Origin: Bacilli bacterium
GTDB taxonomy: Bacteria; Bacillota_I; Bacilli_A; RFN20; CAG-826
Assembly (NCBI GenBank): GCA_045628045.1
Contig: JAZQOV010000006.1
Coordinates: 150,006-214,005 of the forward strand
Direction: 5' to 3'
Length of the DNA: 64,000 bases
This document shows positions 45,608-64,000 of the stretch, piece after piece; the stretch's first letter is position 1, and every line of letters begins with the position of its first letter. Made by a program: the position numbers and the translations under genes. The notes beneath the pieces were generated by a model. The model was not told the DNA's origin. It saw only the letters and a list, made by a program, of their open reading frames with translations, and did not search any database.

Positions 45608-45698
45608 GGAGGATTACCCAAGTGGCTGAAGGGGCGGGCTTGGAAAGCTCGTAGGTATCGAAAGGTGCGCTAGGGTTCAAATCCCTAATCCTCCGCCA
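45608..45698 (+). tRNA. tRNA-Ser(GGA)
   Basis: GGAGGAT/ATCCTCC acceptor, CGGGC-TTGGAAA-GCTCG, long variable arm, GCCA end. Confidence 0.95.
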
Positions 45699-45710
45699 TC
45701 ATTGATTGTC

Positions 45711-45750
45711 AAGACACGTACAAATTGTATGTGTCTTTTCTTTTTTCTTT
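45711..45750 (+). terminator. Terminator after tRNA-Ser(GGA)
   Basis: aagacacgtaca-aat-tgtatgtgtctt followed by T-rich tail. Confidence 0.7.
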
Positions 45751-46125
45751 TATCATTAATATATAAAAATAAGGGAGTTGAAATTCAATCCTTTCACCCA
45801 TATCTAACTTGATCCAGTATTTTTGACCTTTTTAATGTGAACTCACACTACTTCAAAAAAACTGGACAGACACGAGGGTTGAACCCACTTAAGTGATCAA
45901 AAATAAAAGCGAAACAACTATAAAAAAGCTATCGTTATCCTGACTATATTGGTACTGCTTGCAAGTTTAACGTTCCTAATTTGATACTTTTCAATCAAAG
46001 TTAACGTATATTCAACTGTATAGAACAAAACCTCCTGATTTGAAGGATAACATAGATTATGTTTTACATTAAAATGAATATCTTTTAGGCACGCTGACAG
46101 TTGGACGAATCCGGATATTTTTTAA

Positions 46126-46410
46126 TTAAAGAATGCAAGGTGTTGTGCAATCAGTACAATCGCTATTACAGTTGCAGTCACAATCGCAGTCACAATCGCA
46201 GTTTTGTTCGCAAACACAGTCGCATGCTCCGCGGCAATCACTTGGTCTACAATCATATCCACAATCGCAGTCACAATCGCAGTCACAATCAACGTTGCAG
46301 TTACAATCCGCTTTATAGTAGCAGCAGCATCCTCTAATTGGCTCCATTTTCACGTCAATAAAATCTCCTCTTAAATTTAATTTTAAAAACAATTCCTTGA
46401 TTGGTTCCAT
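46126..46410 (-). CDS. 94-aa Cys/Asp-rich peptide, putative radical SAM substrate or metallothionein-like protein
   Basis: GAGG RBS, ATG 11 nt after the SPASM ORF stop; 24 Cys in the last 67 aa. Confidence 0.8.
   Translation of the reverse strand: MEPIKELFLKLNLRGDFIDVKMEPIRGCCCYYKADCNCNVDCDCDCDCDCGYDCRPSDCRGACDCVCEQNCDCDCDCDCNCNSDCTDCTTPCIL
46174..46291. repeat. Two blocks of a 12-bp tandem unit (cagtcacaatcg; minus strand encodes Asp-Cys-Asp-Cys)
   Basis: gcagtcacaatcgcagtcacaatcgcag at about 46174-46201 and a matching block at about 46260-46291. Confidence 0.85.
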
Positions 46411-46421
46411 AAAATCTTCCT

Positions 46422-47422
46422 CTATTCCTTTATCCATCTTAATAAGCACCCTCCACCACAACTCTTGTAATTACTACACAAAGAACATTTTTTAAAAGGT
46501 GCTTTTAATATGGTTTGATAAATCTTGTAAGTTTTATTGCTTTGAAGATATTTCTTTAATGTGTCAAAGTCGTAGTAATCAACATTGTAGCGACCATATT
46601 GATAATTGTATAATGAATTGCACAACAACAAGTCTCCGTTTTCGTCAAAAATAAGACCCTTTTTCTCTTGCAATTGACAAATTGTTCTAATGTGTGGCTT
46701 TGCTATATCTATAAACCCATTAGGAAAAAACAAAAAGGTATATTAATGTGCACGCTAAATTGCTTTATTTTTTCAAGAAGCTCACCATAGGAATTCACAA
46801 ATTCCATAATTATATTTCTTTGATTTAAACCATAATTTGAAATTGCATCATTAACAAAGAACGGATTACAAAATGAAATATAAAAATTTTTAGCGCCTAA
46901 TTCTTTAGCTTTTTTCAAAACACTTACATATCCGTTGATTGTTTTATCAGAAAGAACATATGAAACAATAAATTTTATTGATGAAGATGATAAATTTTTT
47001 ATTGCTTCAAAAACATTTTCAAAACAATCATTTTGTGTCAATGCACAATAATCTTCTTTCGTTGGTGCTTTGATCGAAATGTTTACTGATTCTAACCCAG
47101 ATTGTATCAGTTCTTTTAAATATGAATTGTTTGCTAATTTGATTCCGTTTGTTATTAACCCTGTTTTTATCCCTTTTGATTTGCAATATGAAATGATTAG
47201 CGGAAGGCTGCTATAGCAAGTAGGCTCACCACCTATAATGTTAACATGTCTTATACCAAATTGTTCGATTATATCGATAATTTTATAGGCCAAATCTTCT
47301 TTCATTTCGGAAGCATATTTTGTTCCTTGAGCATAGCACCATTCGCACCGCAAATTGCAATTTCTATTAATGGTTAGCCAAGCACATTGAGGCATGTCCG
47401 AAAACCTTATATTTTTCTTCAT
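46422..47422 (-). CDS. Radical SAM/SPASM enzyme (about 333 aa), split by a -1 frameshift at 46724-46730
   Basis: CNLRCEWC, GGEP, TNG in ORF 46709-47422 (GGGAG RBS); C..GDLLLC and CSLCSNYKSCGGGC in ORF 46422-46733; one extra T joins them. Confidence 0.85.
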
Positions 47423-47496
47423 ATTTCTCTCCCAACAATGATTAAAGCAGTCATTTTTCTTCCCTAAACACAATTATTGATACTTGCAAAAATAAT

Positions 47497-47703
47497 TCAG
47501 GTAATGTTAGAACCTATTAGCGTATATCGACAATAAAAAATAAAGCGATCTTTTCTATATTCTCTTTTGTAGGTTGCCGCATCACATTCGTATTTCGCAA
47601 TCACACTACGAGATAAAAATAATTTAGAAGCAAATTCCGCTTGAGTTAAATTATGTTTTATTCTAAGTTCCTTTAGACTTTTGCTAAATTTCACTATGCA
47701 CAA
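47497..47703 (-). pseudogene. XRE-family HTH regulator, frameshifted
   Basis: LKELR...LTQAEFA...SRSVIAKYE; the typical continuation RQPTKENIEKIALFF is in another frame; GGAGG RBS. Confidence 0.7.
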
Positions 47704-47829
47704 TCCTCCTTACGCTTAAAATATAACTTCAAATAAACAAATTTAATTGTTCTTTTTATGGAACATTTTGTTGTAACAATCTACAAATGGTTTTTGCAAT
47801 GATTCTTTTGTGGTATTTTATAACAAAAT

Positions 47830-48228
47830 TTATAAACATCCACCTAGTGTTAAAACTATTCTCGTATGTCTGTAGCCTTTATTTTTAGAACTACATTCCA
47901 TAACAATATAATAATCATCATCTCCATCAACCTTAACAACTATACCTTGTGAATAATCTGTCTTCCACAAAGGCCTATTTCCATAAAAAGAAGATACAAA
48001 TGCATTGGTTGGATTTGGCGAATTAATATCAAATCCATTTTTGTATAACCATGCATGATAATTTTTGAGGGCTGGCGGAGCACCCATTATCTGAAAAGAC
48101 ATTAGAATGGCGGATTGCATTTTTAATTCTGATTCAAAATCGATTAGCACATATTCTTGTGTTGGATCTAGCTCGTATTCATCCGAAATTTTATTTGGAT
48201 TTTTATACTCAGATAACTTAATATTCAT
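47830..48228 (-). CDS. Hypothetical protein translationally coupled to the DUF4365-like gene
   Basis: TAATG overlap at 48228; 132 aa. Confidence 0.75.
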   Translation of the reverse strand: MNIKLSEYKNPNKISDEYELDPTQEYVLIDFESELKMQSAILMSFQIMGAPPALKNYHAWLYKNGFDINSPNPTNAFVSSFYGNRPLWKTDYSQGIVVKVDGDDDYYIVMECSSKNKGYRHTRIVLTLGGCL

Positions 48229-49199
48229 TAATAATCATCCTCTTCTTTTGGCCTAGTAGAATTATATGGTTGGTCATTAGATAAGAATTCATCAACTCTT
48301 AAAAATGATTTTCCTAAATCGTTTAATGTAAGAATCAACATATATTCGGCAACTTCCCCAGCATGGTCAACGCTCCTCATTGGATTAAGACTTTTGCGAA
48401 ATTCTTCAAAAGATTCTCCTACAACAATCCAATCATCTTCTTCTTTGTCATACCAACAATTTAAATCTTTCCACAGTGTTTCATCACTATCTTGGTAAAA
48501 TTCCTCGTCGACAGAAAAAGAAGCCCAAGGAAATAAACGCGGAAAAACGTCTTCGTATGGAGTAAAAGGGAACCAATAGGGATAGGAATATTTCTTTATT
48601 TCATTCCCATCATCTATTATTAGTTCGGTTTCACCCCTGCCACTAGATTTATTTACCCATTCATACGAATGTAGTTTCACAACCCCACCATTGTTAATCA
48701 CTTCCATAAACACCTTTTGAGATAACAGGAAATTATAATTTACGATATGTTCAGGAAGATTGGTTAATGAAAGCAATTTTTCATTTGATGAAGAATCTAA
48801 AAAAATCTGGTTAAGTGGGATTTTAACAAAATAGCCTTTCCCATTACCATTTTTTGTTTTTTCTATTGTTTTATTTGATAACTCCTGCCATATACAAACT
48901 TTATCATTAGGATTATACAGAACTATAATGCAAGGTAAGGAGTTCATTGTCCAATATGAATATTGCCTCTCGTCGATATCGCGAAAAACAACATAATCTT
49001 TTGTTTTCTCATTAAACCAACTACTGCCAGATTTTATTTGTAAGGCAATTAGTTGTTTTGGTTTATTAGATGAATCAATAAACTCAATATGAGCGTCAAT
49101 ACCGATATCATTTGTTAGCTGTTCGCGAAATAACCATCCACTACTTTCTGCTATTTCGCCTATATGATGAATTCCCTTTCTTTCGGTTGAATTTGCCAT
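48228..49199 (-). CDS. DUF4365-like (PD-(D/E)XK-related) domain protein with an unknown C-terminal domain
   Basis: GWLFREQ..DIGIDAHIE...ALQIKSG, YW...SLP.IIVLYNP. Confidence 0.8.
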   Translation of the reverse strand: MANSTERKGIHHIGEIAESSGWLFREQLTNDIGIDAHIEFIDSSNKPKQLIALQIKSGSSWFNEKTKDYVVFRDIDERQYSYWTMNSLPCIIVLYNPNDKVCIWQELSNKTIEKTKNGNGKGYFVKIPLNQIFLDSSSNEKLLSLTNLPEHIVNYNFLLSQKVFMEVINNGGVVKLHSYEWVNKSSGRGETELIIDDGNEIKKYSYPYWFPFTPYEDVFPRLFPWASFSVDEEFYQDSDETLWKDLNCWYDKEEDDWIVVGESFEEFRKSLNPMRSVDHAGEVAEYMLILTLNDLGKSFLRVDEFLSNDQPYNSTRPKEEDDY

Positions 49200-49223
49200 A
49201 ATATTTCCTATTTGAATAACGAA

Positions 49224-49850
49224 CTAATAGTTTCCTTTATGATTAATTCCTTTATAAGTTACACACTTAGCAATTGGTTCATTGATCTTATCATATGCTC
49301 TATCAATATATTTTTCAGGGTCATTCATAAATTCACTATATCGACACAAAACACAAAACCGTCCATCTTCACAATAATGTCCACATTGATCTGCTTTTAA
49401 ATAATAATTCTTGGAGAACTCTCTAATCACAGTTGAATCATTTATATTAATGACATTTATAAGTTGTTGACAATGTTCACACTTATACGAACCACCATAA
49501 ATTTTCTGCTCCATTTCTGGCAAAACTACGCCAAGAATGCCATCGCGAGGATTACCATCTCTATCAGAAAGAGCCGATCTTAATTCCCTTATAATAAAAC
49601 TTTGATGATTTCTTCCGTATATATCAACGCCCTCATTTTCTGAAGAATGTAACCCAATCAAAAAAATAGTAACTGTTGTTGAACCTTGCCATTTATCACG
49701 GATTTGTTGCATTACATAATCAATATTGTTTGATTGAATTGTTTCATCTAAGTGATTAACTTGTATTTCTTTTTCTTCAAGCCTTTTAACAATCGCATCT
49801 TTATATCGACAGTCTTCTTTTTTAAAACTAATAAATACCCTATGATTCAT
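49224..49850 (-). CDS. thsB: TIR-domain protein (Thoeris ThsB-like / MTH538 family)
   Basis: HRVFISF, IRDK..GSTTVTIFLIG, IIREL (catalytic Glu), GILGV; AAGGAG RBS. Confidence 0.82.
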   Translation of the reverse strand: MNHRVFISFKKEDCRYKDAIVKRLEEKEIQVNHLDETIQSNNIDYVMQQIRDKWQGSTTVTIFLIGLHSSENEGVDIYGRNHQSFIIRELRSALSDRDGNPRDGILGVVLPEMEQKIYGGSYKCEHCQQLINVININDSTVIREFSKNYYLKADQCGHYCEDGRFCVLCRYSEFMNDPEKYIDRAYDKINEPIAKCVTYKGINHKGNY

Positions 49851-49861
49851 ATAACTTCTCC

Positions 49862-49900
49862 TTAATCATAAATAGAAACTTTATCTCTAGGCCCTTCATA
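49862..49900 (-). pseudogene. Remnant of a thsA 3' end
   Basis: Encodes YEGPRDKVSIYD*, versus FEESRDKVSIYD* at the end of 52483-53337. Confidence 0.8.
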
Positions 49901-50017
49901 TAATGCATTGGTTCCGTAAAACAAGATATTGTTAAAATAATAGTTTGTCCATATTTTTTAAATTCTAATTATATTTACAATTTTTGTAAATTTAAAGAAA
50001 CAAAAACTAGGCAAACG

Positions 50018-51490
50018 CTAATTATACTTAACCTCGAAATTATCAAGGCAGATCCTCCCTTTATTTCTGTTCCCTGAAGGCGAATTGTGTTCAGCTATGA
50101 ACCTAATTCTTGATGTATTTTTCGGCAATAAAACGATAAAATCATCAGGATAATCTTTTAGACGCGAGAGACTGTTCAAATCAATCTCTACATGATTAAT
50201 CCATCCGCTATCCCAATATTGTATTTTAAAGCTTTCTCCAAAAATACCTTCCTGTCCGCTCCATAACGAAGCTGAGAACGATAAATAAGGAACATGGTGT
50301 TGGAAGGTTATATCGAGATATGCAGTTCCAGCATTTGCTCTATTTGGTGATAAAACCAAATATTGGTTCTCAATGTAACTCGTTCTTAATCGTTGAGTTT
50401 GAAGAAGCATTCCGTTCGGGAGATAAAAGGATTTATTAATATTGTAGAAAAAGTATTGTCCACCACCATCATTGTTGACAAAGCAATCGAAATCATTAGC
50501 TTCAAATGAATAAGAATGTGAATAATTTAGATTATATGTAATTATTCCTATTTGGCCACAATTAAGAATATCTGCATCGCAATAATAAAAGCAATAGTCC
50601 CAGCCCCAGTTTAAACGGGCTTTTATAAATTTCTTAGTTATTGTCTCATTATTGTTACCATATCCAACCCAAGTTTCGTAACCGTATATATTTGTATAGT
50701 GTTGTGAGAAATTCCCATCTCCACATGCTAATCCAGTGAAAAGAGTAACTGGCAATCCAGAATCAATGTTTGCAACAACTGCATTCCAATAATTATTTCC
50801 TTGTCCACCAAATAAAGTCCATTGTTCATTTGCAGAAATAACATTAGATAAACCATGCAAATTAATAACCGAATTAAAACAACTTTTATAATCCCAAGGC
50901 CAAACTAGCGTGTTGTCTACGCCTCCAAAAATAGAGAAATGTGTTCTTGTCAAAACTTCTGTTGCTAAAATAACTCTTTTGTCAGAATCCGTTGGGTCAC
51001 TAATGATTTCGTTATAACCTAAATATCTAGCAAAATAATCTAGCACGCCCATTGCGGCTATAGGTCCACATCCACCATATGATGTATAGTTACTAACGTT
51101 TGCTACTTGAATTGCTCTTTGAATATCGCTTTCAGGAAAATCAGATGATTGCATTTCAATTGGTATATTATTTGAAACATTGCTAGTTAAACCACAGCTG
51201 CTATTATCTTTTATCCAATAATATTCGCTATATGAATTGTTTAAATATTCAGAAACGTTTGTTATAGAATCACTTACCGAACCAGAACCACCGTTGTTTT
51301 TGCCCTTGCTATTATTTTTGTTTTCTTTGGTGCCCAAATATAAATAATACTCTTCCCAACCATTAATAGAATTTGATTCAGCCATTTGAATTTCAGAATC
51401 AGAAGTTTTGCTCAACAATTTTGAAAAAGAAGATTGTTGATTTGACAAGAGTAATGGAAGCAAATTCGCTAAAATTAAAAGATTAGACAT
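50018..51490 (-). CDS. Secreted papain-like cysteine peptidase (C10/C39-like) with a C-terminal beta-sandwich
   Basis: Signal-like N-terminus; GGCGPIA (Cys), SQHYTNIYGY (His), RLNWGW (Asn) as in streptopain-type enzymes. Confidence 0.75.
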   Translation of the reverse strand: MSNLLILANLLPLLLSNQQSSFSKLLSKTSDSEIQMAESNSINGWEEYYLYLGTKENKNNSKGKNNGGSGSVSDSITNVSEYLNNSYSEYYWIKDNSSCGLTSNVSNNIPIEMQSSDFPESDIQRAIQVANVSNYTSYGGCGPIAAMGVLDYFARYLGYNEIISDPTDSDKRVILATEVLTRTHFSIFGGVDNTLVWPWDYKSCFNSVINLHGLSNVISANEQWTLFGGQGNNYWNAVVANIDSGLPVTLFTGLACGDGNFSQHYTNIYGYETWVGYGNNNETITKKFIKARLNWGWDYCFYYCDADILNCGQIGIITYNLNYSHSYSFEANDFDCFVNNDGGGQYFFYNINKSFYLPNGMLLQTQRLRTSYIENQYLVLSPNRANAGTAYLDITFQHHVPYLSFSASLWSGQEGIFGESFKIQYWDSGWINHVEIDLNSLSRLKDYPDDFIVLLPKNTSRIRFIAEHNSPSGNRNKGRICLDNFEVKYN

Positions 51491-51968
51491 ATGTAATGTT
51501 CTCCTCGCTAATAAAAAGTGTAAAGTAGAAATGTTGTTGTTTTAATTCATAATTGCTTTCTATCACATAACATGCACTATCAGAAGCATTTTTACCACCG
51601 GTAAATAATGGCTTAATATATATAAAATTTTCATCGACATATGTTACAGGTGCGCCTTTTGATCCCTTATGAGCGTCAACTAAATTAAAAAAATCTATAG
51701 CTTTTTTAGACCCACCTTCATCATAAACATAGAACGACAAAAGAAAATAATTTTTCCCAACTAAATCTTCCACAGCATTTCTACCATTGCATAAGATATA
51801 TTCATCTTTATCAATTTTGGAAACAACCAAGTGGCAGCTTTCAGATGAGTTATATGAATTGAATCCGCTATATATGCCCTCAACAAAAAAATTTTTACGA
51901 TGATCAACGCAGCTAGTCAAAGCATTTAAAAAAGTAAACAAGATTGCAATTGAAATATTTTTTTTCAT
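51483..51968 (-). CDS. Lipoprotein of unknown function coupled to the peptidase
   Basis: LTSC lipobox; 8-bp overlap with the peptidase gene. Confidence 0.75.
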   Translation of the reverse strand: MKKNISIAILFTFLNALTSCVDHRKNFFVEGIYSGFNSYNSSESCHLVVSKIDKDEYILCNGRNAVEDLVGKNYFLLSFYVYDEGGSKKAIDFFNLVDAHKGSKGAPVTYVDENFIYIKPLFTGGKNASDSACYVIESNYELKQQHFYFTLFISEENITYV

Positions 51969-52353
51969 ACTAACTTATAATTTATCTTACCAATCATTTT
52001 AATAAAATTCAATTATTTGAAAGTATCATTTTCTGTCGCCAAATATAATAGTTATGTCCAGCTCATTAGCTTCGTATAAGGAATGAGGTATTTTATGAAG
52101 TGAAAATATCAAAGGGATACAAATACAAAAAAACAATTTAGAAAATTGTAGAAGATTTAACAAATCCAAATATCAAATCAGCAAATGAGACTGCTAGAAG
52201 TAGAGGCTTAGAAATTTCAAATTATATAAACATATTAAGCAATTCCGTACTTAAAAAGAAACATCCGAAATAAATAAACTTTCAAAGAAATACGTTTGTT
52301 CAATTAAAACCAAAACTTGTTCTAAATAGTTTTACATAATCAATCTTGCCAGA

Positions 52354-52471
52354 TTAAATCATACCATTTAAATGATTGACTTGTATTTCTTTTTCTTCAA
52401 GGCTCTTAACAATTGAGTCTTTATATCTACGATCTTCTTTTTTTATAACTTATAAATACTCTATGGCTCAT
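52354..52471 (-). pseudogene. Truncated, frameshifted 5' copy of thsB
   Basis: MSHRVFISYKK(+1 A)EDRRYKDSIVKSLEEKEIQVNHL versus MNHRVFISFKKEDCRYKDAIVKRLEEKEIQVNHL. Confidence 0.88.
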
Positions 52472-52482
52472 TTTGTGTCTAC

Positions 52483-53337
52483 TTAATCATAGATTGAAAC
52501 TTTATCTCTAGACTCTTCAAAGATGACGATAGATATAGATGCCCTCAAGGAACATTTTTTATTTAATGCTGCATTCTTTATATATTCAAATGAAGATAAA
52601 TCATCAATTCCAAAAAGAGCAATTTTTGTTCCCATTACAGGAATATAGACGTGTTTACCAGCACATTCATCAGTGATATCCATAAGTTTTTTCATTAAGA
52701 TAGTAAATTCCTCAACATCTTTTTTTATAACTTTATTATGTTCGTTAAATTCAGTTAGCGCGAATAACAAAAAGATACAATCGTTTGTTTCAATGAATAC
52801 ATAGCTTCCTAGAGGATAAACATCTTTCTTGCCTCTTTTATTGTCTAGCACTTTAATCGGAATCCAATGTTTGTTAGCAATAAATTTACTAATATCCCTA
52901 TCAAGTTTTTCTAATAATCTAGGTGTTGAGGCATATTGTCTTAACCATTGTCCATGAATCGAAGTCCCCTCAACAATTCTATCTACAATGCTTGGGCTAT
53001 CCTCCACTATAGTGTCAAACGAAGAATTAACAGGAATTACAACAACTGGTTTTGATTTTTCACGTTTGTCCTTTTTGATGTTCAAAACATTACCATACCT
53101 AGATTCAATAAAAACCGAGCCTCTGCCAGAGATTCTGTGGCGTTTCTTGAATCTTAAAACTAAATATATTGTAAGTAACACTATTATAAATGTTGCTACA
53201 AATATAATTAGCCCAATCCACCAAAAATTACTTGGAAGTAATATAAAAGACAAAAGTGCCCCAATAAAAGAAGAAATAGATAGAGACCAGTTTAGAGATT
53301 TGATTGCATTTTTCTTTTTCCACATATCTAAATTCAT
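52483..53337 (-). CDS. thsA: TM-macro domain effector (type II Thoeris ThsA / DUF6430-like)
   Basis: Two N-terminal TM helices, then YGNV, VVIPVNSSFDT, SIHGQW, YPLGS, FLLFALTEFN, IPVMGT; followed by a TIR remnant. Confidence 0.78.
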   Translation of the reverse strand: MNLDMWKKKNAIKSLNWSLSISSFIGALLSFILLPSNFWWIGLIIFVATFIIVLLTIYLVLRFKKRHRISGRGSVFIESRYGNVLNIKKDKREKSKPVVVIPVNSSFDTIVEDSPSIVDRIVEGTSIHGQWLRQYASTPRLLEKLDRDISKFIANKHWIPIKVLDNKRGKKDVYPLGSYVFIETNDCIFLLFALTEFNEHNKVIKKDVEEFTILMKKLMDITDECAGKHVYIPVMGTKIALFGIDDLSSFEYIKNAALNKKCSLRASISIVIFEESRDKVSIYD

Positions 53338-53440
53338 TATACATCATTTGTCCTTGTTTGTTATAAACAATGTTTTTTATATCCAAACAAGCAGTAGTTA
53401 ATATTTTCTTACAATAATTAGGAATTATGGAGACAAAACA

Positions 53441-54754
53441 ATGGGTATTTTTGATTTTGAAAAATCATTGGTCCACAATGATGAAACCATAGGCAATAGT
53501 GATTATTTTTCAGAGTTGCTACAACAACCAAGAAGCAGTCATAAGAGAAACTCAGCAAAAGATGTTACAGTTTCAAACATATTCTCTAAAAGACAATGTT
53601 GGTCATTTTCTTCTTTTAAAAACGTTTCTTTCATCAACACAAAATTAAGCAATTTTTCATTTCAAAGTTGTTATTTGGATGGATGTTGTTTCATTAATGA
53701 TAAGAAAAAGAAATGGCTTCATACTGTTTATTACACCAATTCTTTTATAAAGAACACAACTTTTAAAAAAATCGATTTTACAAATGTAGATTTTTCAAAT
53801 GCTATTTTCCAAAACTGCATTTTTTATTCAGTCTCTTTTAGATCATGCAATTTTATGCACTCAAAATTTATTAATTGTTCATTTAGATTTGTTTCAATGC
53901 GATATTCTAATTTTGAGTATTCTATGTTTATAAATCCTTCTGTAAGTTCATCCGTCTTATCGTTTAATCAATCACCGTACATTATTGGTGGCATTGAAAT
54001 GGTTAAAAATGGTAAATATATTAGACTCAATCAAAAAGGTGTCTTCATGAAAGCTAATGAATATGGCGATTATTTTCAAGACTTTATTAATTATTATTTA
54101 GAAAAAAACGAATTCTTCCCTCTTGTTAATCTTTATATGAATTTAAAAGAAGTCGAAAAAGCAAAAGAAGTTGCTTCAATGGGATTTAAAAAAGCAATCA
54201 TGTTAAATAATCATGAACTAGCTTTTTCGTTTGCCAGATTGATTAATTATTATGGATTTTTATCTTTTGATGAAAAAAATAGCCTTCTTGAATTTGCGAA
54301 TCAATCATTAGCACAGCAAGAAAATAACGATTATTTAAAAGAAAGATTCTTTTCAATTCAAAATATTGAAGAAGAATTGTTATATCGACCATCTCAAGGC
54401 AGCATGCTTGTTGCAGTTTTTAAAACTAATTTGTTCGAGGGTGATGAAAGACTAAATGATACATTAAAAGATATCGATGAATTTGGCGAGGGGTGTAGCG
54501 ATGAAAATGGATATCATGTTTTAAAAGTCTCGCACAACTCTCCGTTCGAAATAGTTTGTTTGATTGTAGAGTTTATTGGGAGTGTTGCTTCTATTTCAAG
54601 CGTTATCGATACGGTTATCAAAAAAATCAAGGAGCGGAAAGCTAAAAAAGATAGCCGCAACAACGAAGTTGATAATGTTGCTATTTCTGGGGCGATTGTC
54701 ACCATTACATATTCTGATGGCAAGGTAATAAGAATTGAAAAAAAGATAAACTAA
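53441..54754 (+). CDS. Pentapeptide-repeat protein with helical middle and unknown C-terminal domains
   Basis: FKNVSFINTKLSNFSFQSC...FTNVDFSNAIFQNCIFYSVSFRSCNF repeats; GGAG RBS. Confidence 0.82.
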   Translation: MGIFDFEKSLVHNDETIGNSDYFSELLQQPRSSHKRNSAKDVTVSNIFSKRQCWSFSSFKNVSFINTKLSNFSFQSCYLDGCCFINDKKKKWLHTVYYTNSFIKNTTFKKIDFTNVDFSNAIFQNCIFYSVSFRSCNFMHSKFINCSFRFVSMRYSNFEYSMFINPSVSSSVLSFNQSPYIIGGIEMVKNGKYIRLNQKGVFMKANEYGDYFQDFINYYLEKNEFFPLVNLYMNLKEVEKAKEVASMGFKKAIMLNNHELAFSFARLINYYGFLSFDEKNSLLEFANQSLAQQENNDYLKERFFSIQNIEEELLYRPSQGSMLVAVFKTNLFEGDERLNDTLKDIDEFGEGCSDENGYHVLKVSHNSPFEIVCLIVEFIGSVASISSVIDTVIKKIKERKAKKDSRNNEVDNVAISGAIVTITYSDGKVIRIEKKIN

Positions 54755-55890
54755 TATCTTTTATAAATAAGTTTTAATAAGTACGTCTTGTTATCATATT
54801 CTTCGTATTGTTCTACAGCATCTGTCTTTATCTTATAAAGATAGCCATTACTAATTCTTTTAACATTAAAGAAATCCTCGTTCGTTAATATAATCGAAGA
54901 ATAATTAATAACTAATGTTTCACATTTTTTAATTGTTTCTAAATCGAAGAATTCTTTTGAAAACCAGGAAAAATAATTCAGCTCTTGCAAAGAAGGTAAA
55001 CCGTTATCCTTTAACGACATGTTGATTAAAAAGGAAGATGCTTGAAAGCGAGCGTTTATTTCGATTGCATATAATGTGTTTTTTCGATCACACATAAAAT
55101 CGACACCACATATGCCTCTATATCCAAACAATTGCATCTTATGGGCAATTTCTTTAGCCGCAAAATAAGATGACTTAAGAATTTCGTTACCAAGTATTTC
55201 GTTAGCATTGATAAAGTCTGCACCTTGATATGATTGCCTTTTTAGGTCGATTATTTGTATGGATGGTTGGAATATTATTACATCTTTTTCACTTATCAAA
55301 ATATGTCTATTAAAGCTAATTGTGTTTTCAATAAATTCAGAAACAAGGTAAGTGGTTTCGGGTTTTGTTTCTAGTAATAACTCATCCTTTCTTAACAAAA
55401 GAGTATTGTCACATCCTGCGCCATAAGGCTGTTGCAGAACGAACAATTCAGTATCCTTAAAATATGACGAAAGAGCTTTGTCATTTATTTGAGAACCTTT
55501 CAAAACAACATATTTCGGAAAGTGAAAAGAAGACAAATTGAATAGTTTTCGAAATTCGATTTTATTATTAAATAAATCAACAACTTTTTTATCGTTTACA
55601 ACAAGAAAATTATTTTTAATAATTTCAGCATCAAAAGAATATGCTCGGCATTGATTATAAAACATGAATTTTGTATTGTGATTCAAAAACAATATGTTTT
55701 TGATTTGTTTTTCTATAAATTCGCTTTGGGCAGCATTTGACGCTAAATTTGGAGTTCTTATCTGCTTGAATGAAATATGGTTCGAATCATTGCCCCCATA
55801 TAAAGAAATTGTTTTGCTAAAAAAGTCTCCACAATCATCGACATCAGATTGTTTGTTTCCAACCCAAATAAAACAATTATTGTTAAACAT
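54751..55890 (-). CDS. ATP-grasp domain protein
   Basis: NNKIEFR, FVLQQPYGAG, YLVSEFI, GYRGICGVDF, IEINARFQAS. Confidence 0.82.
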   Translation of the reverse strand: MFNNNCFIWVGNKQSDVDDCGDFFSKTISLYGGNDSNHISFKQIRTPNLASNAAQSEFIEKQIKNILFLNHNTKFMFYNQCRAYSFDAEIIKNNFLVVNDKKVVDLFNNKIEFRKLFNLSSFHFPKYVVLKGSQINDKALSSYFKDTELFVLQQPYGAGCDNTLLLRKDELLLETKPETTYLVSEFIENTISFNRHILISEKDVIIFQPSIQIIDLKRQSYQGADFINANEILGNEILKSSYFAAKEIAHKMQLFGYRGICGVDFMCDRKNTLYAIEINARFQASSFLINMSLKDNGLPSLQELNYFSWFSKEFFDLETIKKCETLVINYSSIILTNEDFFNVKRISNGYLYKIKTDAVEQYEEYDNKTYLLKLIYKRY

Positions 55891-55964
55891 AATTCCTAAT
55901 TACTGTAAGAAAATTTTAGCAAATTAATGTTATATTTACAAATAAAACAAAGGAGCAAACTGCA

Positions 55965-56870
55965 ATGAAAATAAAAGAGTTACTAGAAAATTACTTATGT
56001 TATTTAGAATCATCCTCTAATAAAAGCAAAGAGACAATAAGTGCATATAAATATGATGTGTCAGCGTTTATTACATTTTTAAAAGATGGTCAATTATGCA
56101 AAAAATCGATTGTATATTATTTTCAATCATTAATTAAAAACGAGTATGCGACATCGTCGATAAAAAGAAAAAGAATCTCAGTTTCATTATTTTTGGATTA
56201 TGCAAAGCAAAAGAAGAGAATCAGAACAAACTTTATTAAAGACATTAGTTTAAATTTAAAGGATGAAAAAAGAATGCCAAGAACAATACCAGTACCAATC
56301 ATTAAAAGGATGCTTAATTATTTGAATGATGAAAGAAACAATTTGGGGTCTGAATATGATTGTTTCAAAACTAATCGCGATTTAGCGTTATTTGATTTAC
56401 TAATTACTACAGGAATTCGCATTGGTGAGGCAAGCGCTATTAAGATTAGCGATATCGACTCTATCAATAGAACAATTCTTATTCATGGCAAAGGAAAGAA
56501 AGAACGAATTGTTTATATTCCAAACAATGGCTGTTGGGCTAATATTCAAAACTATCAAAGAATAAGAGGGCAGATTGCGTGTTCAAACGATTATCTTTTC
56601 TTAAACAAATACAAAGAAGGACTAGGAACGCATTCAATAGATTTGTTATTTAAGAAAATGATGAAAGAATTACATATATCTTCTATATTCACACCTCATT
56701 GTTTAAGACATACTTTTGCAACAAATCTTTTATCTAATGGAGGAGATTTAAGAACAGTTCAAGAATTGATGGGCCATTCTTCAATATCCACTACTGAAAT
56801 ATACACACATGTCGACTTTAAACGAAAGAAATTTGTACTCGATAATTTTAATTATAGAAATAAAATTTAG
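55965..56870 (+). CDS. XerC/D-like tyrosine recombinase
   Basis: SAM-like N-domain; TGIRIGE, GKGKKER, HCLRH, MGHSS, TEIYT (all catalytic residues present). Confidence 0.93.
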   Translation: MKIKELLENYLCYLESSSNKSKETISAYKYDVSAFITFLKDGQLCKKSIVYYFQSLIKNEYATSSIKRKRISVSLFLDYAKQKKRIRTNFIKDISLNLKDEKRMPRTIPVPIIKRMLNYLNDERNNLGSEYDCFKTNRDLALFDLLITTGIRIGEASAIKISDIDSINRTILIHGKGKKERIVYIPNNGCWANIQNYQRIRGQIACSNDYLFLNKYKEGLGTHSIDLLFKKMMKELHISSIFTPHCLRHTFATNLLSNGGDLRTVQELMGHSSISTTEIYTHVDFKRKKFVLDNFNYRNKI

Positions 56871-57216
56871 TTACTAAATCTAGTCTTGCATAACAACCAT
56901 TCGTATTGATTGCGGGTATGCGCTTTGGTTTATGTCCCGCCATTTTACATTGTTGGTTAACAATGAACAATCTCATATCAAATGAAGAAAATATAACAAT
57001 AGTAACCTTATATATGATTATGGAATATAAACAACAGTTTAATAATGATAAAATATACATTGATTTGTTTTGTTTTTCTTTGATAGTATTAAAGCACTAT
57101 TTTAAATCATAGAAATAACCAACAATATACCAAAACATTGAATACTATTTTAGTTTTTAAAAAATTGAGGAGGCTAAAAGGTAAAAAACAAAAAAATGAG
57201 GAATTGAAGGAAAAGA

Positions 57217-57621
57217 TTGATGTTTTACAGACAAAATTTAAAAAATATAAAGATGTTTGATAATGAATTTTATCGCGAGGTCAATAAAGCCTATAAGAAA
57301 AAGCTCAAACCTTTATATCTTAGAAAAGTAGCTCTAGAAAACATGATCTCCACTGCTACAAACATTTCTGATTATCTTTATCAATTTAAGAAGACCTTAA
57401 TGCCTAATAACCGCATTATCTCTTCACTATCTGAATTTCCGTTAAGCAAGGTGTTTAGTAGGGTAATTATACATGATAGAGAACACATTACTTTTGTATT
57501 AGGAAATGCTGGTGATATTTCTCTTATTCAGAATATGGATGACGATATACTTCTCGAGGAAGAAACATACTACATTAGAAAGAAGAAATTCGTTCTCCAC
57601 TACGGCATTTACATAAATTAA
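57217..57621 (+). pseudogene. Probable C-terminal remnant of a large serine recombinase
   Basis: Coiled coil then FSRVIIHDREHITFVL, typical of LSR C-termini; no catalytic domain or good start. Confidence 0.4.
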
Positions 57622-57688
57622 AAAAATAAATTGTATAATATATCAGTCGAGAGTAAAGACATTAAACCTCTAAATGGAGACTAGAACA

Positions 57689-57784
57689 ATGACAGAATTT
57701 ATTGTTGCCGTGTTGGCCTCCATCGTAGCAAACATAATTTGATGAGCAATCATTAAATTGTTACGATGGCTGAAGCGCAAGTAG
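57689..57784 (+). pseudogene. Type I toxin-like small hydrophobic ORF with two in-frame TGA codons
   Basis: MTEFIVAVLASIVANII**AIIKLLRWLKRK*; GGAG RBS inside a CTCT/GGAG hairpin; TATAAT at 57634. Confidence 0.55.
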
Positions 57785-57905
57785 AAGCCCACGGCAGTGC
57801 ACCGACACTATAATCCGGTTTTTCTTTTATTTGCATATTCTCATACCCTAGTGTGTTTTGACATTTAAGGACATTTATAAAAAAATTCGATATATTCGAA
57901 CTTTT

Positions 57906-59021: not shown

Positions 59022-62000
59022 TTAGATTTCTTTACGTTTTCTGTAGAAGAAGTAACCACCTATAGCGGTTAATCCCACAAGTGAGACCACTGCAATGATC
59101 CATGTAGAATCAGTGATATTCTCTAATGAGATAATTGGATTAATTCTTGAACCCGATGAAGCAACGCTTCTACCAAGATAGTTATAATCAGTCTCTGTTG
59201 CGTAATTGCTAACAACACGATCATATTTCTGTAAGAATTCAATAACCATGTCTGAGGATTGCTTTTCGCCACTTGCGACATAAACACCATCAGGGCCGTA
59301 AGCACCTTCACCACAGATAGCAGATTTTAATAGGTTATAGCTATTTGTATCTGCTAAAAGTGCTTCGTATTCATCACTCTCAAGAACTGAACGCCATGTG
59401 GTTAAATCTGGTTTTAAATTATTACCTTCAGAGCCACATACACTAGCATATGTTTCATTTGCTAAAGCAATAAAGTTATAAATTGTTGCTGTCATAGCGT
59501 TATTTGAATATGTCGTGTTGTATGTGCCTTGACCTGGTGTAGTTTTTGAAATATACACAATGAATGGATCATATGAACTGGTTGTTTTATAGCAACGCAA
59601 ATAGTTACCATTTGCATATAATCTTCTCTCATCACCGCTGCCATCAACATACACTAATTCACCATCTTCATCTACTGTGAAAACAGCACCTTTTCCGCTA
59701 TCTGCACTGATTGTAAATTTATTGCTTGAAAGGCTCGAAATTTCTTTTTTTGAAGTTGGATCACACAATCTAAATGTTCCTTCACTTGAATCAACAATGA
59801 TTACATCGAACTTAATACATGAATTCAAATTATCAACAACAGTGGCATCGGAACTGCTGTAACCGCTGACGTATCCTTTATCAGCATTATAGATATAAAC
59901 TTTTTCAGCAGCATCTAATTGACCGGCACCAGTAAGTTTGCTCCATGAAGTTGTTGGTGTCCCTGGTGTGTATGATGTACTTGATGTAACAAGGTTTTCA
60001 CCTGTTGGCATTCCGACACTTATTGTTACGGAAGCAGTTGCTTCAGCATTTTCTGCTGAAGTAATAGTTAATTGATATGAAGCAACTCTATTGAATGATC
60101 CTTCTGGTAATCCAGAAACTGTAAATTCAGAACTCAATAATGTACCATTGGCACCAGAATCTCTTACGTATGTAACGGTTAAGTCATCTTTGCTAAATGT
60201 TTGACCTTGTCCAGCAGTGTATGTAACACCAGATTTTAATGCTGCCGAAATGGATTTAATGTTATCATTAACAGCTAATACTTCAATATCAACTGATAAT
60301 GTTTCACCCTTTCCTGTAACTGCGCTAAATGTAAGTGTATCTAAAACTTCGTCTGTGAAATAAATTGTTCCAACAAAGCCTGTGTTATCTTCGGTTTCTG
60401 ATTCGATAACAAAGTCACCTTGTGGAAGAGTCCATGTAGCAGATTCAACGTTATTTAATTGAATATTAATATCATAAGAGAATGATGAGCCAACATAAGC
60501 AACAATTTCATTATTGGAAATTAATTGAATTCCTTCAGCTGCACTAATATTGACTGTTAATGTAGCGCTAGCGCTACCAGCCTTAAATGAAACTGTGATT
60601 TGTTCGTTTGTTTTTGTTGAAGAATTGACACTTAACTTTCCATTTGCGAATGTAACAACGTTTTGATCGCCTTGAACGAATTCAGCTGTCTCATCACCAT
60701 CACATCCTAATGTTAAATCAACTTCATTTGTTACACCTGAAGCTAATGTATATGCGCCATTTGAACCTTCGATACCATCACCAGCGATTGTTACGCTTGT
60801 TGATACCTTTGGAGTAACTGTAACACTATAAATTGTGTTCTTAGTAACTCCATTTTCTGTATATGAAACTGAAACATCGTATGTATCAGCAACATTCATT
60901 TGAGCAGATGTTAATGGAGTCACAGTAAATCCTGATGAAAGTTCACGATCTGGGAACTTTGTTTTATCAGTATTACTGTAGTAAGCTTTAATCTTAAGAC
61001 CTGTTGAGTTGAATGATGTACCACGTGTAAATGAGCGTGTTCCAGTACCTTCAACGACTTCAATATGATCTAAGTGTGCTGATTCAGCAGCATTAACAAT
61101 GACTTTCGTTGTAAAAGTACCATAATTGATGGTAATTTCATTGCTTCCTGCAGAATACTTTTCATTAACTATACTGTAATCTGTGATTGGCGAAGAAGTA
61201 CCTGTATTATATAATACAGAAACGTTGAAATGAGATTTGGAAACAGTATCGCCTTCATTTACAGAAAGATTTGCAACAGGTGAAGCATTTAATTTTATAG
61301 CTGTTGGTTGTTCACCTTGTGTTTGGCATCTCTTGTATATGTCAACAAACCCATAACCCGAGGTATCGTCTTTTGGGGTTTGACTTGCATAACAAGCAAA
61401 TCTTGGAGAACCATAGTTCCAAAGCATTATTCTTGATGTATCATTTGCATTTTTAATACAAGTGTGTCCAGAATATGTTGACCAGTCTATATACCATGAT
61501 GTATTTTTAGCAACGTCTGTTCCTGCCATATCCAATGAGTTGCCGGAATTCCATCTTAAATAATTGGTACCATTTTTAAAACTAAATGAACCGGTTTCAG
61601 ACCCAGCAATAACATCAAATTTTAATCCGTTTGTAACATCTAAATGACTCTGGGAGTCTAATTCGACATCAATTGCAACACCATATTTTGTACTAGTTGT
61701 AGAAATTGACGTCATAAGTTTTTTAACATAAGGAGCATAGAAAACAACAGTATCACCAACACTGATGCTGTCTGCAAATGCATAATAATCTGCACCAGGT
61801 TGCAATGTCTTCTTATTAACTGTAATAGTATATGTTCCAGTTACACTACCATTTGTTTTTAAACTTGCTGTGACTGTTTGTGTTCCCTCTGTGTATGGAT
61901 CATATCCCTCAAAATTAACTTCTGAAGAGGTGACGGTTTTGGTTGTTTTATTATCATTATAATAACCAGTTATAGTTCCAGCAAAACTAAATTGATCACC

Positions 62001-63905
62001 TAAAGTAAATATTGTTTTTGTTGCATTAACAATTAAGTGGTCCAATTCAAAAGCTGTGACTGTGACATTGATATTTTTTGTTGGCTCAGTGCCTTCATAT
62101 CCTTGATAATGAGCCGTGACTGTAATTTGTGTTGTGGATGTTGCAACAACGGCGTCAGTACTGAAACTGACCTTTGATGAATCAATTTTTGCTTGCCTTC
62201 CTGAATCCATTGTTCCAACAATTGAAAGGCCGCCGAAATTCCAGGTTTCATTTGTTAAATATGATTTTTTGGTCATATCGCATCCTTCAGTGAATGCAAT
62301 TGATACGACAGTATCATTAACAACTGTAACTCCTGTGATTATTACTGTGAATTCACCATCAGCACATGAATATGTACCGGTTGGATTTGATCCAGCTACC
62401 AATGCATTCCATGAAATATCATTAGCGGTAATTACTACATCGTCGTGATCACCTTCTGACCAAGTTGGTGCAAAAGAGAAACCTTGAGGGTCAAATGCAT
62501 CACCGACATATTGTTTTGCAACGATTTCGCCTGTTGCAGATGCTGTAACACCAGTAATATTTGCGATTTGAGCAGCTTGTACTGAATAAACAACTATTGC
62601 TGTTTTTGATGAATTACCAGTTGCAGTAGCTGTAAATTGAATTGTTCCTTCAACGACGTTGTTTGCATCAATTGCTAATTCATGTGTTGAAGGATCATAA
62701 GTGTATACAATTCCTTCAGTAGCAACTGGATCACTCCAAGAATAATTTTGGTTTGCATTTGCAGGTTCAATTGTGACACCTGGTAATGTTGTTTGTGCAC
62801 CTTTACCAAGAGTGCCTTCTTCATAGTCTAATTCGACTGATTCAACTGCTGCATAGTTAACATTAATTGAATAAGTAGTTGATTTTCCACCCGCATTGAC
62901 TGTAACTGTTTGAGAACCAACAGTGTTAAGTTTGGTTCCTGCGGCAGGAGATGTAGTAATTCCAGTACTTATTTGTTCTTGTGAATCACCATCGCCATTC
63001 GTGTGTGAATAGGTTCCAGTAACAACTAAACCTGTAGTTGCAAAAGAATCACCTAATGTGAATGTTGATTGAGCACCAGAAGCAGATATTGATTGTAAGG
63101 TTTTGGTATCTGCTTTAACTGTAATTGTTTTTGTTGCATCTTCATAGCCATCTTTTTTAGCTGTGATAGTTACGCTAGCACCAGAAGTTGTGCCACCAAC
63201 ACCTGTGACATCACCAGTATTGCTAACTGTTGCAACACCAGTGTTACTTGAAGACCAAGTGACTCCACTTACAGCAGTGCCGTTTGAAGATGCACTTAGT
63301 GTAATTGTTTTTCCGTTATAAACAGTAGAATCACCAGAAATAGACAAAGGTAATGCTGCAGCCTTCTCTTCATAAGTAACCTTAATATCGGATGTAAGTA
63401 AAACACGATCACCACCATTAACGATTTTAAAATATGAATAATTTTTAGTTGTATCAAAAGTTATAGTTTGGCTATTAGCAGTTGATGATAATCCAGTAAT
63501 TGATTTTACATCAACAAAAGTTGAACCGTTGGTGCTTCCTTGCACCTTAAACGAACCATCGGTTTTACTGGATGTTGTTTTACAATCCGCAACATAAACA
63601 GAAGATATTACTCCTGGAAATTCAGTACTAATAATAGTGCCGCTTTTTACTAATTGTATGCAAGAGCCGTTTTTAGCACTAATACTTGAAGCCGTTAAAG
63701 TTACATTGCTTTTGGTATATGAAAGATTGCTTTTCGTACCGCTAGTATATCCAAATCCGTTAATAATATCGTTAAAGTCAATTGTGACACTTCCTGCATT
63801 AACTTCACTAGCCTTATTTCCTGCTGTCACACCGGCGGCGACACCAAGACCCATAGCTAAGCCTAGGAATAAGCCTCCTATTTTTTTGAATATTGATTTT
63901 TTCAT
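59022..63905 (-). CDS. Large surface protein (about 1627 aa) with bacterial Ig-like repeats and a C-terminal membrane anchor
   Basis: GGGAGG RBS before MKKSIF; signal peptide; VTWSSSNTGVATVS (Big_2-like), F.LGD.F...GL.V (Big_3-like); TM plus RKRKEI tail, no LPXTG. Confidence 0.88.
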   Translation of the reverse strand: MKKSIFKKIGGLFLGLAMGLGVAAGVTAGNKASEVNAGSVTIDFNDIINGFGYTSGTKSNLSYTKSNVTLTASSISAKNGSCIQLVKSGTIISTEFPGVISSVYVADCKTTSSKTDGSFKVQGSTNGSTFVDVKSITGLSSTANSQTITFDTTKNYSYFKIVNGGDRVLLTSDIKVTYEEKAAALPLSISGDSTVYNGKTITLSASSNGTAVSGVTWSSSNTGVATVSNTGDVTGVGGTTSGASVTITAKKDGYEDATKTITVKADTKTLQSISASGAQSTFTLGDSFATTGLVVTGTYSHTNGDGDSQEQISTGITTSPAAGTKLNTVGSQTVTVNAGGKSTTYSINVNYAAVESVELDYEEGTLGKGAQTTLPGVTIEPANANQNYSWSDPVATEGIVYTYDPSTHELAIDANNVVEGTIQFTATATGNSSKTAIVVYSVQAAQIANITGVTASATGEIVAKQYVGDAFDPQGFSFAPTWSEGDHDDVVITANDISWNALVAGSNPTGTYSCADGEFTVIITGVTVVNDTVVSIAFTEGCDMTKKSYLTNETWNFGGLSIVGTMDSGRQAKIDSSKVSFSTDAVVATSTTQITVTAHYQGYEGTEPTKNINVTVTAFELDHLIVNATKTIFTLGDQFSFAGTITGYYNDNKTTKTVTSSEVNFEGYDPYTEGTQTVTASLKTNGSVTGTYTITVNKKTLQPGADYYAFADSISVGDTVVFYAPYVKKLMTSISTTSTKYGVAIDVELDSQSHLDVTNGLKFDVIAGSETGSFSFKNGTNYLRWNSGNSLDMAGTDVAKNTSWYIDWSTYSGHTCIKNANDTSRIMLWNYGSPRFACYASQTPKDDTSGYGFVDIYKRCQTQGEQPTAIKLNASPVANLSVNEGDTVSKSHFNVSVLYNTGTSSPITDYSIVNEKYSAGSNEITINYGTFTTKVIVNAAESAHLDHIEVVEGTGTRSFTRGTSFNSTGLKIKAYYSNTDKTKFPDRELSSGFTVTPLTSAQMNVADTYDVSVSYTENGVTKNTIYSVTVTPKVSTSVTIAGDGIEGSNGAYTLASGVTNEVDLTLGCDGDETAEFVQGDQNVVTFANGKLSVNSSTKTNEQITVSFKAGSASATLTVNISAAEGIQLISNNEIVAYVGSSFSYDINIQLNNVESATWTLPQGDFVIESETEDNTGFVGTIYFTDEVLDTLTFSAVTGKGETLSVDIEVLAVNDNIKSISAALKSGVTYTAGQGQTFSKDDLTVTYVRDSGANGTLLSSEFTVSGLPEGSFNRVASYQLTITSAENAEATASVTISVGMPTGENLVTSSTSYTPGTPTTSWSKLTGAGQLDAAEKVYIYNADKGYVSGYSSSDATVVDNLNSCIKFDVIIVDSSEGTFRLCDPTSKKEISSLSSNKFTISADSGKGAVFTVDEDGELVYVDGSGDERRLYANGNYLRCYKTTSSYDPFIVYISKTTPGQGTYNTTYSNNAMTATIYNFIALANETYASVCGSEGNNLKPDLTTWRSVLESDEYEALLADTNSYNLLKSAICGEGAYGPDGVYVASGEKQSSDMVIEFLQKYDRVVSNYATETDYNYLGRSVASSGSRINPIISLENITDSTWIIAVVSLVGLTAIGGYFFYRKRKEI

Positions 63906-64000
63906 AATTTTCCTCCCTTTTGAGTAATGTATGATTGAATCAATTTGACGAATTGTTTCTGAGACGATCTTCTCATACAATTTAATTCGCCAATTAATTT

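Follow-up and report, generated by a model that had tools for sequence, protein, structure and literature searches.

Inverted sites around a convergent gene pair

The window, a stretch of 64,000 nucleotides from a Bacilli bacterium (G000:C6:150006-214005; host genome 1.07 Mb), contains an island of ~12 kb (about 45720-57900) with a tRNA-Ser(GGA) gene at its left edge and a Fic gene at its other end. Inside the island, just upstream of an Xer-like tyrosine recombinase gene, two inverted sites enclose a convergent pair of genes for a pentapeptide-repeat protein and an ATP-grasp ligase-like protein (~2.5 kb; Table 1). This element is probably a recombinase-driven inversion switch in which whole genes change places and whose cargo is exchangeable and often defence-like, similar to the Mycoplasma Xer1/vpma system. 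An earlier note on this DNA had proposed an integron-like cassette array at five other sequences, which are treated in the last section.

Table 1. Features of the element and its surroundings (window coordinates)
Feature	Position	Strand	Basis or remark
tRNA-Ser(GGA)	45608..45698	+	left edge of island
thsB (TIR), intact	49224..49850	-	PADLOC ThsB
Left copy of ~189-bp duplication (thsB start/thsA end)	49712..49900		repeat and homologue alignment
Right copy of ~189-bp duplication (thsB remnant)	52332..52520		holds most of site 4 of the earlier note
thsA (macro-domain Thoeris type), fixed far-side flank	52483..53337	-	PF20016, PADLOC ThsA
Weaker promoter-like sequence, far side	53376..53404	+	TTTATA-17-TAATAT + TG, 8/12; read by eye from flanks
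Left (thsA-side) recombination site	53403..53429	+	inverted repeat; 17-bp core; kept in relatives
Left site, outer arm	53409..53417
Left site, spacer	53418..53424		7 bp, TTAGGAA
Left site, inner arm	53425..53429		TTATG
Cargo gene A, 437-aa pentapeptide-repeat protein	53441..54754	+	PF00805/PF13599
Cargo gene B, 379-aa ATP-grasp ligase-like protein	54751..55890	-	PF02655; convergent with gene A, 4-bp overlap
Right (recombinase-side) recombination site	55888..55914	-	spacer 55899-55893; contig ends of public runs here
Predicted fixed promoter outside segment, pointing inward	55913..55941	-	TTGTAA-17-TAAAAT + TG extension
301-aa Xer-like tyrosine recombinase, likely invertase	55965..56870	+	PF00589 + PF02899; transcribed away from segment

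The left and right sites are identical at 26 of 27 bases and share one build: an arm, 7 bp, a second arm, and a ribosome site. Two inverted arms around an asymmetric 7-bp spacer are the usual build of a tyrosine-recombinase site. The 17-bp core, CA(A/G)TAA-TTAGGAA-TTAT, occurs exactly twice in the genome, both times at this locus and as inverted copies. The last bases of the inner arm of the right site are the start codon of the ATP-grasp gene. At both ends the common repeat stops at or before the start codon, indicating that the crossover does not fall within coding sequence, and a ribosome site lies within or next to each recombination site, directly before the start codon. A general site pattern with GGAG detected no further site in the same genome; this strict pattern also misses both real sites.

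The recombinase retains intact R-K-H-R-H-Y motif blocks. Its scores are below the equivalog cut-offs of both chromosomal XerC and XerD (213.6 against 335 bits and 192.9 against 330 bits, respectively). The integron-integrase model TIGR02249 gives 103.9 against 265 bits, and its best stretch covers only residues 225-287. The protein is 29-31% identical to the two Xer proteins of the host, which lie on a separate long branch, and the core-bearing recombinases make up one side of a branch in the tree (support 80/95). Of the 16 genomes whose recombinase matches at E<=1e-60, 11 have the core upstream of the recombinase gene. The adjacent recombinase is very probably the catalyst. The scan of metagenome contigs revealed 0 relatives of the recombinase among 127 candidates. 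Two genomes have additional sequence between the promoter and the recombinase gene: two open reading frames (ORFs), presumably transposase-like, in G168 (L054:13233-14503) and a 308-bp insert in G017 (L014:70-378). Either might alter flipping.

With one mismatch allowed, a 20-base site pattern is found in 19 of 401 genomes of the family, against 2 for the reversed control. Ten of the 19 carry an inverted pair on one contig, two have sites that lie at, or close to, the ends of two contigs, and four have a single site; the remaining three, one-mismatch matches, were set aside unannotated. The pattern occurs in 16 metagenome stretches. Two of them, on one contig (L131/L132), represent the system, and 14 look like chance, as does a single viral match.

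The distant set consists of 12 loci whose recombinases are about 39-44% identical. Six of these loci have a complete inverted pair of the form A(A/G)TAA-7-TTAT(T/G) with a ribosome site. Their spacers (TAACGGA, TTATATA, TAACAAA, TTATGAA, CGATAGA, and CTATTAA) differ between elements and are identical within each pair. Strand exchange demands exactly this, which argues against plain regulator boxes. None of 600 random windows contained a perfect inverted repeat of at least 22 bp. It is very likely that the crossover takes place in the spacer. Two candidate tandem slots were observed. G646 has a second copy of the promoter and the site with a different spacer (L156:12879), and G607 has a second site, with the window's spacer, downstream of the recombinase gene (L151:10763).

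Both orientations and changing cargo

The segment is present in both orientations among genomes. In G003, window positions 53386-55922 are found at 98% identity, reversed relative to both flanks, and G199 carries the same segment, likewise reversed and 98% identical. G120 and G168 carry another common cargo in opposite directions. The ATP-grasp gene of G003 is split in two frames and its pentapeptide gene is at the promoter side (L012:3620-4760), which weakens a strict toxin-antidote reading of the window pair.

Eight of the 24 listed public runs were examined, all as contigs rather than raw reads. Assuming assembly words of 31 bases, a repeat of 15-27 bases breaks a contig only where paths branch. 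In run X2, the cassette is a single contig (53403-55914) ending exactly at the common repeat, with a depth of 21 against 23.6 and 23.3 for the flanks. In X6, which comes from a separate study, the cassette contig spans 53415-55902 at a depth of 136.4, and the flanks show 138.2 and 139.6. The ends of this contig confine the exchange to 53415-53429, which contains the spacer. In X9, one gene start lies on two flanks within one run: 39-base contigs link the start of the ATP-grasp gene with the recombinase-type flank at a depth of 4 and with a different flank at a depth of 11.4, the cassette having a depth of 16.6-17.5. The pentapeptide start in the same run is joined to a flank taken, from three trimmed letters, as recombinase-type (10.3), and the ratio is about one to three. 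Contigs of X1 and X12 break at the sites too, and in X11 one end of another cargo is attached to both arms. Among genomes, the cassette of G017 forms a contig of its own (1,679 bp) that carries a site at either end, and the assembly breaks at the site in G017, G199, G147, and G051. Both cassette ends of G329 are joined to the thsA-type flank (L114:10399 and 11922), as a mixed-orientation assembly would give.

The cargo changes exactly at the site. The 300-bp thsA-type flank is at least 0.91 identical in nine other genomes. The first gene behind it is an ATP-grasp gene in two and an unrelated gene in six, and the contig ends there in one. In six of the eight genomes with inside sequence, identity drops at the site to 0.44-0.52, which is background, inward; the other two carry the window cargo inverted. 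The histories of cargo and recombinase cross: G003 combines 98% identical cargo with a 71% identical recombinase, and G017 combines a 94% identical recombinase with other cargo. Half-cassettes are mixed as well, as the half composed of a membrane gene plus an unplaced gene faces a second membrane gene in G017 and G136 and a PNP-STALD gene in G117. The changing cargo is read most simply as exchange through recombination at the sites, and the balance leans towards exchange at both sites. Homologous recombination in the flanks could spread a loaded slot.

The two cargo genes of the window are unrelated to each other. The product of gene A has one C-terminal hydrophobic segment (residues 367-385). 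It matches the models of Qnr and of the Hailong effector HalA weakly and partially, far below the cut-off (HalA: 26.8 against 250 bits, in the repeat region only), and its Atlas matches are below 0.9. Its homologue in another family (28% identical, G607) is located back to back with a related recombinase gene. For gene B, 31 homologues were found at E<=1e-10.

The commonest cassette of the relatives encodes two distantly alike membrane proteins. Their cargo also includes ThsA-like SIR2-STALD, PNP-STALD, and TIR proteins, PDC-M50A-like membrane proteins, and P-loop NTPases. The cargo pairs of the distant loci are SIR2-STALD and TIR (G071); ATP-grasp and P-loop NTPase; an SHMT-like protein and a 588-aa protein without assigned family; an NTPase with DUF6270 and two glycosyltransferases; a radical SAM protein and a TIR protein; and, downstream of PNP-STALD, a 447-aa protein and a probable glycosyltransferase labelled from sequence alone. 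Among these cargoes, a small enzyme repeatedly faces a protein that resembles a sensor or effector, and such pairing suggests signalling-type defence.

The middle-gene family of the commonest cassette (L131:4577-5134) has invariant Y, E, G-x-W-Q, and E residues. An N-terminal strand hinted at a TIR-like fold. The confident structural model (predicted local distance difference test score 82.5, from seven sequences) did not support it at the Foldseek threshold of E<=0.001, where nothing matched, and sequence comparison with Pfam and PDB gave no match either. The Atlas label of DNA polymerase B showed low recognition and was not used.

Promoters, mechanism, and alternatives

The predicted promoter on the recombinase side scores 9/12 plus TG in the consensus scan. 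The scan alone finds fewer promoter-like sites than shuffles do; it is conservation that carries the case. Both hexamers and their spacing are kept in the flanks of relatives while the bases between them vary, and a promoter variant is kept in a 47-48%-identical group, whose far side carries a hairpin and a T run. Outward promoter candidates inside the cargo genes are at chance level, and the conserved candidate is outside the segment. The far-side candidate falls under the 9-of-12 threshold of the scan. Orientation would likely determine which of the two genes has strong expression. In the window, the gene on the far side may not be silent, and the switch would be perhaps high/low; it is perhaps on/off where a terminator-like hairpin precedes the far site.

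In the proposed mechanism, the recombinase would bind the four arms, exchange strands across the 7-bp spacers, and invert the 2.5-kb segment. Transcription from the predicted promoter on the recombinase side would then reach the gene brought next to it, with the ribosome site in or next to the recombination site serving translation. The population would split into two states, and the same slot would probably take up other gene pairs, many of them defence-like. The suggested purpose, by a narrow preference, is a mixed population with two defence states.

Several points weigh against this inversion switch and its link to defence. The window's two cargo genes match no PADLOC model, several cargoes of relatives are enzymes without a defence label (glycosyltransferases, SHMT-like, and radical SAM proteins), and the commonest middle gene matches no family and no fold. 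The loci were partly fetched for carrying the site, and kin are not independent. Four of the 12 distant loci show no site, and two have unpaired sites on short contigs. The far side has the 8/12 promoter-like sequence, and the recombinase-side promoter is a prediction only. Comparison of the window with G003 shows the A/G difference of the outer arm moving together with the cargo; barring a plain polymorphism, this is not what a spacer crossover predicts. In the public runs, the strand-changing joint is not listed among the contigs of any of the eight, X12 listed only connectors of the window orientation, and the cassette of X10 is far shallower than its flank.

An unlikely alternative holds that flipping is a by-product. 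The sites would mainly load and exchange cargo, and both genes would be expressed either way from promoters on both sides. The high variability of the cargo, the far-side 8/12 + TG sequence kept in thsA-type flanks, and pairs that look mutually dependent, such as SIR2-STALD with TIR in G071, are consistent with it. However, in G120, G087, G168, and G147 the flanks show a hairpin and a T run before the far site and no -10-like hexamer. The promoter on the recombinase side is kept throughout, and each site carries or abuts a ribosome site before a start codon.

It is quite improbable that the inversions are rare and historical and that the mixed contigs reflect strains living side by side. Such contigs could also arise from two strains, each fixed in one of the two orientations, and the metagenome data are contigs only, in which rare variants are lost. 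The right site of X13 is unbroken, and this run has two cargoes at one flank without any hint of inversion. Equal cassette and flank depth with clean breaks at the repeat edges in the separate studies of X2 and X6, both joins in X9, and the assembly breaks at the site in four genomes speak against this reading.

The host XerC/D pair is scarcely credible as the agent that flips the segment. The probable dif of the host (G000:C3:11509-11536) is the best-scoring 28-mer in the genome and adjoins (4 kb) one of the two Xer homologues, at the point where GC skew turns negative. The inner arm bases of the real sites (ATAA, TTAT) equal those of this dif; however, the real sites match it at only 10-11 of 22 bases, the spacer is 7 bp rather than 6 in all seven spacer types with complete pairs, not 11-6-11, and the sites are directly upstream of one recombinase clade across several families.

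In Mycoplasma agalactiae Xer1/vpma and M. bovis vsp, inversion connects an otherwise silent ORF to a fixed promoter (PMC2268961). The window element resembles them in its adjacent Xer-like tyrosine recombinase and in sites just upstream of start codons (PMC2268961); the likeness described is one of arrangement. In Ureaplasma parvum, the mba/UU376 and UU172 loci are inverted by XerC, and two opposed ORFs are switched at short AT-rich inverted repeats with either/or expression, as proposed here (PMC3599477). The Ureaplasma cargo is surface antigens, the recombinase serves a second locus, and no cargo exchange is described in the available part of that source (PMC3599477). The cargo of vpma/vsp is paralogous surface lipoproteins in a multigene locus (PMC2268961), whereas here it is one usually unrelated pair, often defence-like and variable between genomes, on a mobile island. 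As in the vpma/vsp and mba types, the catalytic motifs are intact, the same inverted site precedes each alternative gene, and both orientations exist. The paralogous surface-antigen cargo of these types is absent from the window, whose cargo genes are unrelated.

In an integron (IntI, attI, attC, Pc), the tyrosine recombinase is transcribed away from a promoter facing promoter-less, exchangeable, often anti-phage cargo. The window recombinase is likewise transcribed away from a predicted promoter pointing into probably exchangeable cargo. Unlike an integron, the element has no tandem array, its two sites are inverted and double-stranded, and its enzyme is far below the integrase cut-off. No intergenic repeat family was found in the island among the 20 largest repeats listed. 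In pdif modules, sites bound exchangeable cargo, as in the window element. The likeness to dif/XerCD lies in inverted arms with ATAA/TTAT inner bases around a short spacer (PMC2731167). The element differs from dif and pdif in its 7-bp spacer and probably dedicated enzyme, in place of 11-6-11 and host XerC/XerD, and in that the site doubles as a ribosome site behind a predicted promoter.

Invertible promoters and gene-altering inversions (fimS type, shufflons, and hsdS) are programmed inversions beside a recombinase, including those in defence loci (DISARM-like and BREX) (PMC9881135). Unlike these, whole genes would change places here, with the conserved promoter candidate outside the inverted segment and no recombination of coding sequence. 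PinQ of the Escherichia coli prophage Qin drives an inversion with an anti-phage outcome, and the same source states the role of recombinases beside defence genes as unknown (PMC12529663). PinQ differs in being a serine recombinase of a cryptic prophage with an adsorption block, and the available part of the source describes no exchangeable slot (PMC12529663). Full-text literature searches, including those for defence-gene inversion and for integron-like systems in Bacillota, found no description of this design; the supplements of inverton catalogues, outside their scope, may list such loci.

The usual reading of a tyrosine recombinase next to defence genes is that of an integration relic. The window recombinase instead has defined sites, a mixed population, and a slot with changing content. 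If the inversion switch is correct, defence genes in these bacteria would be phase-varied by whole-gene swapping. The site pattern would be a rule for finding candidate defence genes without family, such as the pentapeptide/ATP-grasp pair and the unplaced middle gene, and the spacer series would be a natural set of probably orthogonal recombinase sites. Inversion would also explain the assembly breaks beside this recombinase family.

A broader view is speculative. These loci may belong to a widespread, undescribed Xer-like family in small-genome Bacilli, with a two-position slot that would capture and exchange immune-type gene pairs. Each flip would place the other gene of the pair behind a single promoter, and in this way sister cells would follow different defence programmes or keep a signal-making enzyme and its effector apart. 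The 7-bp spacers would keep neighbouring slots independent. Such a family would be a double-stranded, inversion-based counterpart of integrons.

Five dif-like sequences and the rest of the island

The earlier note had read five 28-mers (46040-46067, 49910-49937, and 52035-52062 on the plus strand, 52329-52356 and 56883-56910 on the minus strand; sites 1 to 5) as dif-like sites with a TTATG-type arm, bounding defence/accessory cassettes that the local recombinase might shuffle. All five are present at these positions and strands. Four have the TTATG-type arm, and the site at 49910 has TATTG. Site 5 begins 12 bp past the recombinase stop (56870), as described. Two are indeed near remnant breaks: site 2 is 10-12 bp from the break of the thsA remnant (49898-49900), and site 4 overlaps that of the thsB remnant (52332).

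Their likeness to dif is at background level. Against the arms quoted in the earlier note, they match at 9, 12, 11, 13, and 11 of 22 bases, and 319,031, 18,085, 55,767, 4,922, and 55,767 of 2,142,526 genome positions score equally. Against the host dif, the matches are 12, 12, 10, 12, and 9 of 22, equalled by 16,935 to 314,855 genome positions. The density of TTATG is 3.55 per kb in the island (43 copies) and 3.61 per kb in the genome. Compatible spacers are not seen, as the 6-bp spacers share 0-4 of six bases in all ten pairings and no two are alike. A leave-one-out weight matrix predicts 14 to 1,190 equally good matches per 12.1-kb island. A comparison with 5,000 sets of five randomly drawn TTATG 28-mers shows a weak mutual likeness of the sites (p = 0.035 for the right tail, 0.038 for all free columns, 0.037 for pairwise identity, 0.063 for arm symmetry, 0.14 for the left arm, and 0.40 for the spacer), and site 1 is the most symmetric (7/11 arm bases). 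We put this likeness down to hand-picking for dif likeness from 43 candidates. A dif-like 17/22 match at 55978-56005 was also dismissed as chance; it is inside the recombinase ORF and its TTATG is lost in all homologues shown.

Breakpoints were mapped with 99 alignment ends from 46 related loci at a tolerance of 15 bp. None of the 99 ends falls within 15 bp of site 1 or site 5, both of which are inside conserved blocks. Site 3 is without homologue, and the mapping covers the other four sites. The ends near site 2 (n = 8) and site 4 (n = 8) come from the same eight loci and represent one event, the ~189-bp duplication. These breaks are not at the spacers: that of site 4 is 8 bases into the right arm, and that of site 2 is 10-12 bases before the left arm. 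The TTATGTAA of site 4 represents the D-Y-V codons of thsB and also occurs where thsB is intact. In one of three homologous loci, site 5 has TTATT. The block for a ribosomally synthesized and post-translationally modified peptide (RiPP), which one site was thought to close, starts at 45930, which is 110 bp outside site 1. Alignment ends also cluster at 47818-47833; considered as a module border, this cluster proved to be a 97-bp deletion in the window genome.

An integron-like array of these five sites, shuffled by the local recombinase or the host XerC/D, is thus as good as dismissed by their background scores, unlike spacers, and breaks from one duplication, despite their weak mutual likeness (p about 0.04), the symmetry of site 1, and the position of two at or near real breakpoints. 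What survives of the proposal is that Xer-like sites do bound defence-like cargo beside the local recombinase. They are other sites (TTATG at 53408 and 55882) and inverted, and the shuffling takes the form of inversion, with probable cargo exchange, at that pair.

From left to right, the island carries genes for a Cys-rich peptide and a radical SAM protein (the latter split), a DUF4365 pair, thsB, the extra module of two genes, thsA, the pentapeptide-repeat and ATP-grasp genes, the tyrosine recombinase gene, and a remnant that has a longer homologue in G003. At L019 (G015), the Fic gene starts at most ~25 bp after the tRNA region, so that the two are nearly adjacent there. The sequence following the tRNA gene (45697-45749) recurs further out in G016 and G010 (L022 and L024), as if insertions were stacked; no att-like copy of it was found at the right end of the island.

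The Cys-rich peptide encoded within 46126-47473 has Cys-Asp repeats. The accompanying radical SAM frame is split at ~46724, where runs X1 and X10 have one extra base, and an intact frame of 333 aa is present in L051 and L131. The DUF4365 nuclease-like gene and its 132-aa partner (47830-49199) accompany thsA-thsB in several relatives, and G003 has a second, partial copy of the small partner gene.

The thsA and thsB genes are contiguous in eight related loci and in four of four public runs. In the window genome, they are parted by the extra module at 50018-51968, which is surrounded by the ~189-bp duplication of the thsA/thsB junction and is missing from all eight informative loci and the same proportion of runs (4/4). 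The region at 49900-52332 encodes a pair of probable exported proteins (490 aa and 161 aa) without family match, and the two junction copies flanking the pair are diverged (81-82%).

The last remnant (57190-57624) is derived from a probable large serine recombinase and is 91% identical to sequences of G007 and G200. Its longer G003 homologue weakly matches a serine recombinase model. Beyond the island, positions 59022-63980 encode a 1,652-aa surface protein with Ig-like repeats, and similar large genes adjoin several related recombinase loci.

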